20,553 bases of DNA from a virus (taxonomy: Duplodnaviria; Heunggongvirae; Uroviricota; Caudoviricetes), in IMG/VR virus record IMGVR_UViG_3300042889_002176, positions 1 through 20,553 of that record; one strand, written 5' to 3'. The position numbers and the translations under genes are program-made. The first letter of the stretch is position 1. The number at the start of each line of letters is the position of its first letter. The notes below the pieces were generated by a model. That model searched no databases. It was not told where the DNA came from and worked only from the letters and a program-made list of their open reading frames with translations. Shown piece by piece: positions 848 to 5,533 of this stretch.

Positions 848-2419
848 TTAATGAAAATCTAATAGAGTTTCTAAAGCGTCAAAGTCGTCTGCTTGTATTG
901 TATTTTTGTTTAAATTTGACAAAATATTGTATAAAATTTGTAATTCTTCACGACTGCGAGTCTGCGGCCAACCCAGAGTCACACTTAGTTCATGTAGCTC
1001 TAATCGACGACGAATTCTTTCTTTAAGAGTCAATGTTGGGTTCGTTTCGTTTAACCAACCAAACCCCAGTGCAATGTCACGGATCCCTTTTGGTAAATTT
1101 TTTAATTTAACTGCAAAATCTGGATCAGTTATTATTTTAACTTGCGAGTCGTGTTCTAGTTTGTTTGTGGATCGAAACATTCCGGTATATCCCCACCGAA
1201 TCATGTGTATTACACCGGCCTTTGCATAACGTTGATACCTATGTAAAAATTCAAGATTGCACTCATGATCTTCTTGAGTTTCAGTTGGATACCCTACAAA
1301 CATTAGACATACGTTTTTGATACCGTATTTGGCACATTGAGAAAAATGAAAATCAATGTCTGAATTACTGTAGTGTTTGCCCATATGTTTTCGCACACTG
1401 GGACTAAAAGTTTCGAATCCTGTTACTAACAAATCGGCACCTGCTTGTGCCATCAACTCCCAGTCTCTCTCGTTTTGATCTAAGCGAGTTCTGCAAATAA
1501 ACTGCCCAACATAGCGAATTGGTTCAAGATCAGGATCTTTTTGTTTTGCCTCAATTAATTGCCGATTTATATTTCTCCAAGTTTTCATGTTACCATTCAA
1601 CAGGCTATCTGTAAAATGAAAAATATTTGCACCAAATTCTTTTTTGCCTCTGATGATTTCGTTGACTACATCATCTGCAGCACGGGATTGATATTTGGGC
1701 CAGAGTTGAGGTACATTGCAAAATGTGCAATTTCTTACACATCCTCTGCTGGCAGTAATGTACATTCCAGGTTGGTGCGTGTAAAAATAATTTTTTGGCT
1801 CAATGTCACGGTAATCAGGGTACGGGAGAGATGACAGGTCGTTGATCTGCAATGGTGGAATACCATTTATTCCTGGATATTCAAAATTTTCATTGAGTAA
1901 TTCCATAATTGCAACTTCGCCGTCGCCGTGTATGTAATAATCTATTAGATCATGTAATTTTGCAAATTCACTAAAACTACTAGTTTTTTTGTCAATTTTT
2001 TCCAACGCCGGCAGCCCGCCTGGCCAGGAATAAGCACCATTGCCTCCAATCACTACTTTACAGTTAATTTTTGGCCTAATATACTGTAACAGTTCCCAGG
2101 CCGGTATCACACTCATTCTGGTAAACACACTCATGCCCAACATGTCTGGTTGATATTCAATGATTGTGTTAATAAATTTAAGCATCACTTGTTCTAACTC
2201 TAGACGTGTGGTAGAATCAATTTCGAGACTCTTGCATCTCCAATACGACTCTAATTCCACCCAGGTACGAGTGCTTACATTTTTGTTTAAAAACAAATTA
2301 AAATCAAATATTTTACAGTCCCAGCCAACTTTTCTAATGCAGGAACTCAGTGCCGCTGCTGCTGCAGGTGGCCTCTCAAGTTCCTGACTTGGAATGTTGA
2401 TAAATGCAAATTTTTTCAT
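848..2419 (-). CDS. Cobalamin (B12)-binding radical SAM enzyme (class B methyltransferase-like)
   Basis: CxxxCxxC in SRGCVRNCTFC. N-terminal B12-binding-type motifs RPPAAAAAL..IRKVGWDCKIFDFN, PDMLGMS, VVIGG, HGDGE, LPYPDY. Core motifs FHFTDS, GFETFS, VGYPTET. Confidence 0.9.
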   Translation of the reverse strand: MKKFAFINIPSQELERPPAAAAALSSCIRKVGWDCKIFDFNLFLNKNVSTRTWVELESYWRCKSLEIDSTTRLELEQVMLKFINTIIEYQPDMLGMSVFTRMSVIPAWELLQYIRPKINCKVVIGGNGAYSWPGGLPALEKIDKKTSSFSEFAKLHDLIDYYIHGDGEVAIMELLNENFEYPGINGIPPLQINDLSSLPYPDYRDIEPKNYFYTHQPGMYITASRGCVRNCTFCNVPQLWPKYQSRAADDVVNEIIRGKKEFGANIFHFTDSLLNGNMKTWRNINRQLIEAKQKDPDLEPIRYVGQFICRTRLDQNERDWELMAQAGADLLVTGFETFSPSVRKHMGKHYSNSDIDFHFSQCAKYGIKNVCLMFVGYPTETQEDHECNLEFLHRYQRYAKAGVIHMIRWGYTGMFRSTNKLEHDSQVKIITDPDFAVKLKNLPKGIRDIALGFGWLNETNPTLTLKERIRRRLELHELSVTLGWPQTRSREELQILYNILSNLNKNTIQADDFDALETLLDFH

Positions 2420-2952
2420 AATTTTAATACTTGTTTTATTTTTTCTACAAGATCGCTACACGGATCTAAGCTGCCGCGAAATTTCCAAACACGATCAGGA
2501 TCTTGATCCAAAAAATTAATAACTTCAAGTTGATTTTTTTGTTCAAAGTACCAGTCCCAAAAATTGTCCTGCCAGGCCCAGCAGATATCTCCGGGAAAAT
2601 TGTACTGGTAGGCTGCGGTAATTTCTGTAACAGATTCAGGAAACTGTTTTAAAAATCCACTAAAATATCTAGGACGATAAACAGAGATATTTTTAAACCA
2701 AGGTTCTAGTTTTATTCCGTCGCACCATATCTGAAGGATTTTGAATTCGGTGTCGGCAGTGATGCAATCATTTTCTATAATTGTGTCCGACTCAACTTTG
2801 TTGTAAAAATCTAAAATCAATGTTCCGGTATCCTCAACAACAACATCAATAGTTGAATGGCCCAATGACAAAATGAAATTTTTGTTGCCCGCACAAATTT
2901 TTGGTGCAGATCTACCATGATTAGCTTCGATTGAAAAAGTAAATGTTAACAT
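2416..2952 (-). CDS. Hypothetical protein, paralog of 4036..4515
   Basis: LILDFYNKVESDTIIENDCITADTEFKILQIWCDGIKLE aligns with LVIEHIDKHPHDTVVENGKIVRDRSFELEQIVIDNHDFE. Its stop overlaps the radical SAM start (ATGA). Confidence 0.8.
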   Translation of the reverse strand: MLTFTFSIEANHGRSAPKICAGNKNFILSLGHSTIDVVVEDTGTLILDFYNKVESDTIIENDCITADTEFKILQIWCDGIKLEPWFKNISVYRPRYFSGFLKQFPESVTEITAAYQYNFPGDICWAWQDNFWDWYFEQKNQLEVINFLDQDPDRVWKFRGSLDPCSDLVEKIKQVLKL

Positions 2953-3007
2953 TACAAACTGTATAAAAATGAATCAAACATTGAGAGTAGCAAATAATTA
3001 TCAGAAT

Positions 3008-4069: not shown

Positions 4070-4515
4070 GCCTGTTGATAGTAATTATAATCTTCTTCCC
4101 AGTCTGGGTCGTTGTTATTTTTTTCATGTCGAGTTTTTAAAATCCATTTCAACACTGGATTGTTAAATTTTAATGCAAAATTTCCATTTGGACCAAAAAA
4201 CAAACAACTAGAATATACTGATCCGTTAGATGCAGTGAATTCACTATTCCATTTCAATTCTTCAAAGTCATGGTTGTCAATTACAATTTGCTCAAGTTCA
4301 AAACTTCGATCTCTGACAATTTTTCCATTCTCTACCACAGTGTCGTGTGGGTGTTTGTCAATGTGTTCAATCACTAGTATAGCATCAATGTCGTAAAAAT
4401 CAAATTCTTTTGAGTATTGATCAGGTACGGCACCTCTATAGAGTTCCTGGTTATTGATGCGAATGACACACATTGGCGTGTCAATTATGTTTTTAAATTT
4501 TAATTGTAGCTTCAT
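4036..4515 (-). CDS. Hypothetical protein, paralog of 2416..2952
   Basis: Shares the K-x-x-x-DT-x-x-EN...D-x-x-F...QI-x-x-D block with 2416..2952. Overlaps both neighbouring PLP genes. Confidence 0.8.
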   Translation of the reverse strand: MKLQLKFKNIIDTPMCVIRINNQELYRGAVPDQYSKEFDFYDIDAILVIEHIDKHPHDTVVENGKIVRDRSFELEQIVIDNHDFEELKWNSEFTASNGSVYSSCLFFGPNGNFALKFNNPVLKWILKTRHEKNNNDPDWEEDYNYYQQACKILQQISQQ

Positions 4516-5533
4516 GTTTTATAAATTCAAACAGATCCCAGTGATCAAAAATACTAACCAACGAAATTCTATTTTTAAATTGACCAACGTCTAGATTCAA
4601 TTGATATGTGTTGAGTAAATTTGCTCGACTGTATTGATTCCAATTCTGATCCCCAACAGCAAACAGTACTGAATCACTAGCTTCTAATCCAAAAAAATCA
4701 CAAACTGTTTGTTGCTTGATTTTGTAAGTTTTGTAGATATAATCACTGCTGAAATTTTCAATCAATTTTAGCCCAACATACGCACTGAGGGTGTTGTTAT
4801 ACCCAATGGAATCATGCAGTGTTTGTCCGTCAACAATGCTAGATTTGGTAAACCTCACGCCGATTCGTAAATTTGCAATAGGAAAAGCCTTACTCAAACT
4901 AAACGCCACTGTATCTATGCAGTCGTGACGTAAATCTGCATGGATATTTCCACTAATAGGATAGTAACAACAATCTACCAAAACAGGAATATTCAACGAG
5001 TCGCAAAGATCAAGCAATTGATCAAAACCTAGTAGTGTAGTGCCAGTGTCACAAAATGGTAAACTAATTACCAAGGCATCTCCATATTGCAACGGGGCCT
5101 GTTCGTTGACAAAACTCCAATTGGTATTATTATTGTCCCAGGTTTTTAAATGATAAAAATACTCACCTACAAAACATCTCATTCTTCGCTGACGATGACG
5201 ATAATAAAAACTATCAAAACTTTGGGTAGTACCGTTACTAAAGTCAATTTTATAATTATCGAGTCCTTGTAATTGACTGTTGGTATGTTGAGAAATCCAT
5301 TTGGGTATAATTTTTTTAAAATTATCTAGATTAGACCGATGTAACAAAACTGACGGATGTGTTTGTTGATCAAAAATATTATTAATTATTTCAACAATAG
5401 CTGGATCTTTGACTGCACGAGATCCTTGAAATAATAACTTTGAATGCTGTCTGCAGTTATAGAAGTTATCGGTTTCACGTGCGGAAATAAGCCAGGCAAG
5501 TTTTTTATGTAATTTAAGTTTTACATTGCCCAT
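4493..5533 (-). CDS. PLP-dependent fold-type I enzyme (aminotransferase class I/II-like), copy 1
   Basis: VLVDCCYYP (DxxY), FSLSKAFP (SxSK Schiff-base Lys), LRIGVR (phosphate-binding Arg), NGTTQSFD. Confidence 0.82.
   Translation of the reverse strand: MGNVKLKLHKKLAWLISARETDNFYNCRQHSKLLFQGSRAVKDPAIVEIINNIFDQQTHPSVLLHRSNLDNFKKIIPKWISQHTNSQLQGLDNYKIDFSNGTTQSFDSFYYRHRQRRMRCFVGEYFYHLKTWDNNNTNWSFVNEQAPLQYGDALVISLPFCDTGTTLLGFDQLLDLCDSLNIPVLVDCCYYPISGNIHADLRHDCIDTVAFSLSKAFPIANLRIGVRFTKSSIVDGQTLHDSIGYNNTLSAYVGLKLIENFSSDYIYKTYKIKQQTVCDFFGLEASDSVLFAVGDQNWNQYSRANLLNTYQLNLDVGQFKNRISLVSIFDHWDLFEFIKHEATIKI

Follow-up and report, generated by a model that had tools for sequence, protein, structure and literature searches.

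What does a phage do with two pyridoxal 5'-phosphate (PLP)-dependent enzymes, two small proteins outside any annotated family and a radical S-adenosylmethionine (rSAM) enzyme of the B12-dependent type, all encoded side by side on one strand? The question is raised by positions 848-5533 of a 20,553-nucleotide stretch of phage DNA (hereafter the window), which is the first 20.5 kb of the 84.5-kb IMG/VR phage record IMGVR_UViG_3300042889_002176 (CheckV completeness, 24%). We compared this cassette with about 120 related phage loci. It consists of two autonomous modules, a trio of PLP1, small1 and PLP2 and a pair of a small protein and a class B rSAM enzyme, and it occupies a slot whose contents are exchanged among relatives. 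We tentatively propose that the modules encode tailoring enzymes. The five genes are listed below with their lengths in amino acids (aa).

4493-5533, minus strand: PLP1, 346 aa; predicted class I/II aminotransferase fold
4036-4515, minus strand: small1, 159 aa; predicted CBM60-like beta-sandwich with two C-terminal helices
3008-4069, minus strand: PLP2, 353 aa; PLP1 paralogue
2416-2952, minus strand: small2, 178 aa; small1 paralogue and partner of the rSAM enzyme
848-2419, minus strand: rSAM enzyme, class-B-like (B12-type), 523 aa; C227-x3-C231-x2-C234

All five genes reported in the initial annotation were confirmed, and all lie on the minus strand; these open reading frames are not chance occurrences, because orthologues with 40-85% identity are present in 45 other phage loci. 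The genes are closely packed: PLP1 and small1 overlap by 23 nucleotides (nt), small1 and PLP2 by 34 nt, and small2 and the rSAM gene by 4 nt, and a gap of 55 nt separates PLP2 from small2. No similarity to the cassette DNA was found among GenBank phages, and no family in Pfam, PHROG, NCBIfam or PADLOC covers PLP2, small1 or small2; PHROGs and PADLOC return nothing for PLP1 either.

Two autonomous modules

The PLP-anchored part of our comparison set comprises 44 IMG/VR loci retrieved with PLP1 and one contig binned into a Haliscomenobacter metagenome-assembled genome (MAG). In every one of the 45 loci with full-length PLP genes, PLP1, small1 and PLP2 are intact and in the same order. The trio is also intact in a lineage (class D, L038-L045) where gp46, the gene that precedes the cassette in the window, does not adjoin it.

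The rSAM gene follows another pattern. Only in the window and in one other locus (L005) are small2 and the rSAM gene found downstream of PLP2. In about 11 loci, a class B rSAM gene (30-38% identical) followed by a small-family gene for 166-185 aa lies upstream of PLP1, in L008 the rSAM/small pair is on the opposite strand beyond the GIY-YIG gene that borders the cassette, and the majority of PLP-bearing loci have no class B rSAM gene. As many as 20 of the 22 distinct class B rSAM genes adjoin a small-family gene on the same strand, in either order, and nine of these are without a PLP gene nearby. The units are thus PLP1-small1-PLP2 and small plus class B rSAM, two autonomous modules.

The initial annotation had described the locus as a duplicated PLP-small module capped by an rSAM enzyme. 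This organization was rejected: the comparative loci reveal a fixed trio and a separate pair, and the small gene linked to the rSAM gene travels with the latter, not with PLP2. The linkage of the five genes, which that annotation would have given up had they been scattered in relatives, therefore holds for the trio, which is always together, and partly fails for the rSAM pair, which moves independently.

Two sets of loci deserve separate description. The MAG contig (L047, NZ_JBBAKG010000001.1, 183 kb, named 'MAG: Haliscomenobacter sp.') has gp55, gp47, gp46, PLP1, small1, PLP2 and the GIY-YIG gene in the same order as the window at 70-95% identity. Here phage DNA has been placed in a bacterial bin, which is either contamination or a faint hint of the host. 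In the class D lineage (e.g., L044:4990-12263), the trio is preceded by genes for an HhH-GPD protein, a QueD/6-pyruvoyltetrahydropterin synthase (PTPS)-like protein and unknown proteins of 394 and 237 aa, and it is followed by a 106-aa gene and a gene for an IscA-like iron-sulfur (Fe-S) carrier. The 394-aa protein has a 36% identical relative in genome G000 (G000:56703-57683), directly after the rSAM array of that genome.

The PLP pair

PLP1 and PLP2 are 32% identical (E-value, 2e-50). The AlphaFold2 model of PLP1, built with 30 homologues (predicted local distance difference test score, pLDDT, of 90.9), has a large alpha/beta/alpha domain and a small domain, and by this model the protein has a class I/II aminotransferase fold. 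In Foldseek it matched HisC (1uu1; E-value, 2.8e-11), and in VIA, kynurenine aminotransferases, the C-S lyases PatB, MalY and MetC (cystalysin too), OvoB and HisC tied at Z 21-22 over approximately 300 residues. Because these structural scores are tied, the subfamily of PLP1 cannot be named. Sequence identity to the structural neighbors is only 9-15%. A PDB search with the PLP1 sequence alone produced nothing significant, and a PLP1 profile retrieved HisC only (E-value, 0.04). Pfam PF00155 scored PLP1 at 19.5 bits against a gathering threshold of 19.7 and did not match PLP2; it was the sole Pfam match among the PLP proteins of the window, neither of which matched PF01041 (DegT/DnrJ/EryC1). The assignment to PLP enzymes made in the initial annotation stands, and both are of fold type I, PLP1 by its modeled fold and site residues and PLP2 by its identity to PLP1. 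A NifS-type desulfurase identity was considered and rejected, as the motifs are HisC-like and no PF00266 match was found anywhere.

Profile alignment to HisC (1h1c) places D187, Y190, S214-K215 and R223 of PLP1 on HisC motifs, and the PLP1 site is complete (K215, D187, Y190, S212, S214, R223 and R322). PLP2 retains K231, D202, Y205, S228, S230 and R334, with K239 in place of the phosphate-binding arginine. The DxxY and SxSK motifs, seen earlier in the two window copies, turned out to be invariant across both paralogue families: the Lys, the Asp, the Tyr and both Ser residues are conserved at 95% or more in 36 distinct orthologues of PLP1 and 36 of PLP2, and the C-terminal 'NR' arginine is conserved too. 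Because the site residues are conserved across both sets of orthologues, PLP1 and PLP2 both appear competent for PLP binding. At the eighth position after the lysine, the contrast between LRIG and AKIA pointed out in the initial annotation is fixed, with Arg in 36/36 PLP1 and Lys in 36/36 PLP2 orthologues; judged from the alignments, it is an old feature. Across loci PLP2 is better conserved (49-85% identity to the window) than PLP1 (40-71%).

With class I/II aminotransferases such as HisC, kynurenine aminotransferases and PatB/MalY, the pair thus shares the whole fold (Z ~22), the SxSK lysine, the Asp/Tyr pair and the C-terminal carboxylate arginine, and PLP1 alone shares the arginine eight residues past the lysine. 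In contrast to these enzymes, the two window paralogues invariably occur as a pair that encloses a beta-sandwich gene, and in PLP2 the phosphate arginine is replaced by lysine.

The small proteins

That the two small proteins are paralogous, as had been suggested, is barely visible in BLASTP (E-value, 5e-5) and is supported by profile comparison (hhalign, 99.4%; E-value, 3e-21; 155 columns). Proteins of this family have 160-185 aa. The AlphaFold2 model of small1 (pLDDT, 91.4) contains a beta-sandwich followed by two helices. Its best VIA match is a carbohydrate-binding module of family 60 (CBM60; 2xhh, Z 10.3, root-mean-square deviation of 3.3 A, 109 of 119 residues aligned), followed by PLAT/C2-type sandwiches at Z 5-6.7; Foldseek matched another CBM60 (2xfd; E-value, 9e-4). 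In a protein-language search of the Atlas, CBM60 was the named cluster nearest to small1 (0.82), which we treat as a lead only. Neither small protein matches the Pfam CBM60 model (PF16841), matches of small1 in BFVD were uncharacterized phage proteins only, and no fused forms of small1 were found among longer proteins, which is weak evidence.

CBM60 is a calcium-dependent xylan-binding module. The likeness of small1 to the calcium-dependent CBM60/CBM36 modules (2xfd, 2xhh) is in the beta-sandwich topology of its residues 1-120, a match at the level of fold only; those modules are domains of secreted glycosidases, whereas small1 stands alone as a cytoplasmic protein and has two additional helices at its C-terminus. 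In small1, Cys104, which lies in the CLFFGPNG loop, is invariant. The conserved loop differs between the two small subfamilies, and the small proteins that partner rSAM enzymes are without the Cys.

The B12-type rSAM enzyme

The Radical_SAM domain (PF04055) was readily detected in the fifth protein (74.5 bits; cut-off, 29.5), and the match to the B12-binding domain (PF02310) was weak (16.4 bits; cut-off, 32.1). Nearly all of the best NCBIfam matches were to B12-binding rSAM families, and 22 of 22 were below the cut-offs. For the window enzyme these were a C-methyltransferase for peptides that are made by the ribosome and modified after translation (RiPPs), PhpK, a ladderane B12-rSAM, BzaD and HpnJ, the list being headed by the RiPP C-methyltransferase TIGR03975 (E-value, 1e-20; 73.8 bits against a cut-off of 281.85); the alignments covered residues 47-394 for PhpK and 82-264 for HpnR. 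The closest solved chains are QCMT (9ccb; E-value, 2e-8) and TsrM (6wte; E-value, 6e-5), the former being a B12-dependent glutamine C-methyltransferase (PMC12931638). The C-terminal 130 residues have no match. The class B assignment of the initial annotation is thus borne out in the form "class-B-like" by the CxxxCxxC motif, the B12-rSAM family models and QCMT, with PF02310 below its threshold. With the known class B enzymes (QCMT, TsrM, PhpK and GenK-type) the protein shares the CxxxCxxC core and an N-terminal region matching B12-rSAM models, and it differs from them in having an obligate small beta-sandwich partner gene. To our knowledge, no class B rSAM enzyme has been reported with such a partner.

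An exchange slot in a jumbo phage

The cassette is bordered by two genes, and a promoter-like site precedes the upstream one.

5589-7664, minus strand: gp46, Rad50/SbcC-like recombination nuclease subunit (Pfam AAA_23/SMC_N); upstream border of the slot
326-787, minus strand: minimal GIY-YIG (SegE-like) gene (Pfam SegE_GIY-YIG, 109.7 bits); downstream border of the slot
7673-7701, minus strand: resembles a sigma-70 promoter (TTGTAA-17-TATAAT with TG) and lies just ahead of gp46; a consensus match only

Other genes on the minus strand of the window encode a T4-type gp55 late sigma factor (PHROG 12791; E-value, 1e-74) and gp47 (Metallophos), and the plus strand carries baseplate-type genes. The nearest cultured relatives by gp46 are the Pseudomonas jumbo phage PA5oct (44%) and Agrobacterium phage Atu_ph07, and related records of 347-354 kb are 98-100% complete. 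Because of these T4-type genes, cultured relatives and near-complete records, we identify the source as an uncultured jumbo T4-like phage of fresh water.

How constant is the cassette in such phages? We assembled an independent sample anchored on gp47, namely the best 80 of at least 600 matches, in 61 of which both gp46 and the GIY-YIG gene are visible. The slot between these two genes is empty in about 20 of the 61, with 5-110 nt between them, and in about 32 it contains only an rSAM gene of 300 aa in one or two copies. A class B rSAM gene with a small gene occupies seven slots, six of which also have the 300-aa rSAM gene, and the PLP trio occupies two. In addition, one relative whose gp47 is 85% identical (G006; 346,856 bp, terminal repeats, 100% complete) has no PLP-family gene anywhere. 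Because empty, single and combined occupants are found among the 61 loci, because G006 is without the trio and because the cassette is low in G+C, we consider the interval from gp46 to the GIY-YIG gene a hot spot whose occupants can be interchanged and combined. That the trio might be a core gene set of the clade was also considered; the gp47-anchored sample and the complete G006 led us to reject this. The cassette is therefore optional rather than a pathway fixed in the phage.

The G+C content is 0.35-0.38 in cassettes, 0.43-0.46 in gp46 and gp47 and 0.47-0.51 in structural genes; within the window it is 0.35-0.40 over positions 1-6000 as opposed to 0.45-0.51 over 12000-20553, which contain core replication and structural genes. 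The cassette lies among early DNA-metabolism genes, and the glycan island of this genome is 24 kb past the window. The promoter match at 7673-7701 could possibly drive gp46 and the cassette; no terminator-like site was found in the minus-strand intergenic regions between gp46 and the rSAM gene, and the cassette and gp46 are probably in one transcript.

The GIY-YIG gene keeps its position, at mostly 80-97% identity in closer loci (38-93% overall). As a member of the pathway it was rejected, since empty slots have it as a neighbor too and the class D lineage lacks it. In the closer loci it is better conserved than the adjoining cassette genes, and it stays when the slot is empty (gp46-GIY-YIG interval, L053-L131). 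Seg endonucleases cause local gene conversion in T4; by analogy, the GIY-YIG gene may drive or mark cassette exchange at this slot.

The 300-aa rSAM gene (e.g., L006:9777-10679) is the commonest occupant, often in two tandem copies, and is sometimes found between gp47 and gp46 (L060, L110). Its best NCBIfam match is a W-cofactor maturase family at 51 bits; the N_Twi_rSAM core scores a weak 38 bits.

The wider PLP family and its rSAM partners

A profile of both PLP paralogues was searched against 1.84 billion representatives. The wider family comprises 740 clusters at 50% identity, 207 of them at an E-value of 1e-30 or lower, and most of its proteins have about 290-310 aa. In the Atlas, the clusters nearest to it are 85-100% viral, and when 185,579 species genomes were scanned, the mis-binned phage contig was the sole match, with no cellular orthologues. 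Judged by these searches, the family looks essentially phage-only. A tblastn search of 50,697 GenBank phage records with PLP2 found nothing. A distant member is present in the cultured Pelagibacter phage Mosig (Mosig_00079, 'putative aminotransferase'), in a tail-fibre-adjacent island together with three MoaA-like rSAM enzymes, a DegT aminotransferase, carbamoyl-, acetyl- and methyltransferases, a TauD-type dioxygenase and Asp/Arg hydroxylases. Cassettes of rSAM genes in the tail-fibre-adjacent island of pelagimyophages were described previously, with no function assigned (PMC7029224).

Members of the family are fused to rSAM domains in both orders. In P0186 (805 aa; 8 members, up to 7 contigs), N_Twi_rSAM (NF033640, a twitch-domain rSAM family; 324 bits, cut-off 170) precedes the PLP domain, and in P0230 (699 aa; 36 members, including Tara Oceans) it follows the PLP domain (257 bits, cut-off 170). 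Two further fusions join the PLP domain to a PhyH dioxygenase (P0210) and to a SAM methyltransferase (P0216). Adjacency recurs as well: a P0186-type gene lies amid an array of rSAM genes, some with N-terminal SPASM/twitch, and Asp/Arg hydroxylase genes; in at least 11 more loci, which belong to another lineage, an N_Twi_rSAM gene (215 bits) is found a short way upstream of a PLP gene (within some 1 kb in L137), near genes for a glycosyltransferase, an NAD-epimerase, a xanthine-phosphoribosyltransferase (PRTase)-like protein, FolE and a QueE-like protein; and in L131, a 300-aa rSAM gene overlaps a single PLP gene by 4 nt. Because of the two independent fusion orders and the repeated adjacency, there is strong evidence, drawn from gene architecture, that the PLP family and rSAM enzymes act on the same substrate. 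N_Twi_rSAM, although a partner of the wider family, is not part of the window cassette; in the same genome, PF04055 matches lie 27 kb past the window end.

Three loci extend this picture of the family. L051 (2364-18372; IMGVR_UViG_3300009376_001085) contains at least seven rSAM genes and two Asp/Arg-hydroxylase genes; among the products of this array are a 1417-aa protein in which Radical_SAM matches two stretches and an 813-aa rSAM-PLP fusion. L137 (1668-10459) and at least 20 related marine and lake contigs share a string that begins with N_Twi_rSAM, unknown proteins of 164 and 212 aa and PLP and continues with an arginine-deiminase-fold-like protein of 353 aa, a xanthine-PRTase-like protein, FolE, a QueE-like rSAM enzyme and a 5'-3' exonuclease. 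In L048 (3682-6806), the P0230 match covers 623 residues over 3125 nt, and an intron, an intein or a mobile gene may have been inserted into this gene.

Proposed function

The reading that we prefer, and which we advance tentatively as possible rather than probable, is that the modules encode combinatorial tailoring enzymes, a heterodimeric aminotransferase-type enzyme and a B12 rSAM enzyme, each directed by a CBM-like adaptor to a substrate that is sugar-like or polymeric. The data above show which genes these are, their folds, the conservation of the PLP-site residues, the extent of the modules, the pairing of rSAM and small genes, the optional and combinatorial distribution and the fusions. 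Our inference covers the pairing of PLP1 with PLP2, the role of the small proteins, the kinds of reaction and the substrate class, and it runs as follows. Fold-type I PLP enzymes are obligate dimers with shared active sites. Because this fold is dimeric and because the two paralogues are never apart, are translationally coupled and have diverged asymmetrically, the first module would consist of a PLP1-PLP2 heterodimer, formed by old paralogues one of which has an altered phosphate pocket, and a CBM60-like subunit. The second module would consist of small2 and the cobalamin-type rSAM enzyme, most likely a C-methylase or a catalyst of some other radical reaction typical of class B. Because the small proteins accompany enzymes of two classes whose chemistry is unrelated, and because their fold is CBM-like, they would be substrate-binding or targeting adaptors rather than catalysts. 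The PLP enzyme would oxidize or aminate a hydroxyl/keto position and the B12 enzyme would methylate, both on a sugar-like or polymer-bound substrate. Tailoring of such a substrate is suggested because PLP relatives are fused or adjacent to N-twitch rSAM enzymes in tailoring islands, which are rich in sugar-nucleotide genes, glycosyl-, methyl-, acetyl- and carbamoyltransferases and 2-oxoglutarate hydroxylases.

There are precedents for such chemistry. The aminotransferase and rSAM pairs BtrS/BtrN and DesI/DesII act on cyclitols and sugars, and the class B rSAM enzymes GenK and GenD1 methylate aminoglycoside sugars. In BtrS/BtrN and DesI/DesII, as might by analogy be the case here, a PLP aminotransferase and an rSAM enzyme (twitch-type in BtrN) act in turn on one hydroxyl/keto position. 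However, BtrS and DesI are DegT-family proteins whereas the window PLP proteins are class I/II, the window rSAM enzyme is class-B-like and not twitch-type, and the cassette is without sugar-nucleotide genes.

Several observations weigh against this reading. The likeness of small1 to CBM60 in the predicted structure is at the fold level only, with 8-10% identity, and the next matches are PLAT/C2-like lipid-binding sandwiches. All sugar aminotransferases that we know of are of the DegT type, and those in the window are class I/II. The conserved Arg322, in a HisC-like 'NRIS' motif, suggests an alpha-carboxylate and thus a substrate that resembles an amino acid more than a plain sugar. The cassette lies with early DNA-metabolism genes, probably in the gp46 transcript, 24 kb from the glycan island. 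Finally, QueD-like, FolE and QueE-like genes of the 7-deazaguanine pathway are found near PLP-family genes in two other lineages.

A bolder extension, which we regard as rather unlikely, is that the small CBM60-like proteins are enzyme-agnostic targeting subunits of a new type that dock unrelated tailoring enzymes on one phage target polymer (DNA, or a virion or host glycan), so that swaps at the slot would generate combinatorial hypermodifications under arms-race selection. The cautious statement of the initial annotation, that the genes form an uncharacterized modification pathway, stands, as do the enzyme assignments.

The component parts belong to known superfamilies, and the cassette does not represent a new category. 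Its novel features are a PLP family that is unannotated and looks phage-restricted; a fixed heterologous pair with an altered phosphate pocket; a dedicated beta-sandwich partner common to the PLP pair and a B12 rSAM enzyme; and the placement of these genes in a cassette-exchange slot. The PLP family is genetically welded to rSAM chemistry in abundant aquatic phages, and the window, where the family can be dissected more clearly than before, shows which genes belong together and which are optional, along with a beta-sandwich partner that two classes of enzyme have in common. Should the modules act on phage DNA or on a surface glycan, they would supply new modification chemistry and help to explain the presence of at least 12 rSAM enzymes in giant phages of lakes and the sea. 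Small groups of proteins for co-expression can be chosen from the fusions and the fixed gene pairs, which makes the question testable.

Alternative functions

The first alternative is hypermodification of nucleic acids, in which the cassette would provide optional tailoring of a modified base of phage DNA or RNA, for example of an amino-acid- or 7-deazaguanine-derived side chain, diversified under host restriction. We consider it unlikely, although its merits are real. The cassette, which is probably transcribed together with gp46, lies among genes of early DNA replication and recombination, in a region that we take to be analogous to that of the T4 DNA glucosyltransferase genes; the conserved carboxylate-binding Arg322 would suit an appended amino acid; QueD-like, FolE and QueE-like genes are near the PLP family in two other lineages; and FolE and PTPS exist in the clade. 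On the other hand, these last two genes are equally present in G006, which is without the trio, and we know of no PLP step in 7-deazaguanine DNA modification. The 98% complete genome G001 has one thymidylate-synthase-family gene (PF00303, 349 bits), which is canonical-looking, and a search of G001 for tRNA-guanine transglycosylase (TGT)/DpdA found no match.

The initial annotation had likened the cassette to the thymidine hypermodification cluster of Pseudomonas phage M6 (gp51-gp54), which combines PLP and rSAM enzymes (PMC8989533). The resemblance is in the occurrence of phage PLP and rSAM enzymes with combinatorial variation among relatives, and presence and absence of the cassette is combinatorial as in thymidine hypermodification clusters (PMC8989533), which speaks for hypermodification. 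It does not extend to homology: the annotation of M6 gp52 is threonine dehydratase, which is a PLP family of fold type II, and gp53 resembles SPL among rSAM proteins, whereas the window proteins belong to other families. In BLASTP, gp52 and gp53 fail to align with the window proteins (E-values, 0.42 and 0.23, with only the Cys motif aligned), and this lack of relationship counts against the hypermodification alternative as well. The absence of a kinase and a transferase, noted earlier for the window, could be extended to five genomes (G000, G001, G006, G002 and G003), in which single-sequence searches with M6 gp54 (5-hmdU kinase) and gp51 (aGPT-Pplase) found no match; this is a weak negative, as no positive control was run, and it too tells mildly against hypermodification.

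Auxiliary metabolism of a free compound is, in our estimate, decidedly unlikely. Here the PLP pair and the B12 rSAM enzyme would convert a soluble amino acid, cofactor or antibiotic-like compound, and the small proteins would be structural subunits. A class I/II fold with an alpha-carboxylate Arg is indeed typical of amino-acid metabolism, the cassette is below the core genes in G+C and the nearby slot between gp47 and gp46 holds a clear metabolic cassette (ANL ligase, TctC, Rieske oxygenase). However, the PLP family is essentially phage-restricted with no cellular orthologues, its relatives sit in tailoring islands and not in metabolic operons, and a beta-sandwich partner common to an unrelated enzyme class is unusual for enzymes of soluble metabolites.

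We are more doubtful still that the small proteins are themselves the substrates, in a protein or RiPP-like maturation where the B12 rSAM enzyme would methylate small2 and the PLP pair would modify small1. The one-to-one pairing of enzyme and small gene, the invariant Cys104 of small1, the RiPP C-methyltransferase TIGR03975 as the top NCBIfam match of the rSAM enzyme and the activity of QCMT, its closest solved chain, on a protein glutamine would all fit. Nevertheless, the small proteins have 160-185 aa and are confidently folded (pLDDT of 91 for small1), unlike leader-core peptides; the loop differs between subfamilies, with no Cys in the rSAM partners; the scores to named rSAM families are all far below cut-offs; and PLP chemistry requires a free primary amine beside the reacting carbon, which is rare on folded proteins.

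A role in sulfur or Fe-S supply, with PLP1 and PLP2 as C-S lyase or desulfurase-like enzymes and Cys104 of small1 as a sulfur acceptor feeding the phage rSAM enzymes, is highly improbable: C-S lyases (PatB, MalY, MetC and cystalysin) do tie for the top structural match (Z ~22), G001 (the 354,429-bp record of L009) has 17 Radical_SAM matches and two IscA-like genes with no class V desulfurase, an IscA-like gene lies two genes past PLP2 in the class D lineage and the slot is full of rSAM genes, but ordinary aminotransferases share the structural tie, the motifs are HisC-like (SxSK...RIG, NRIS) and not NifS-like, the PhyH dioxygenase and methyltransferase fusions do not suit a supply role, G006 has the same lifestyle without the trio, and the small proteins that partner rSAM enzymes have no Cys. 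G001 also encodes FolE and a PTPS/QueD-like protein.

The neighboring insert

Between gp47 and gp46, positions 7716-11960 of the window encode an ANL ligase, a TctC/Bug binding protein and an AndAc/AndAd-like Rieske oxygenase (NF041684, 395 bits). Pieces of this insert are seen again in six other loci (L064, L070, L075, L077, L115 and L128).

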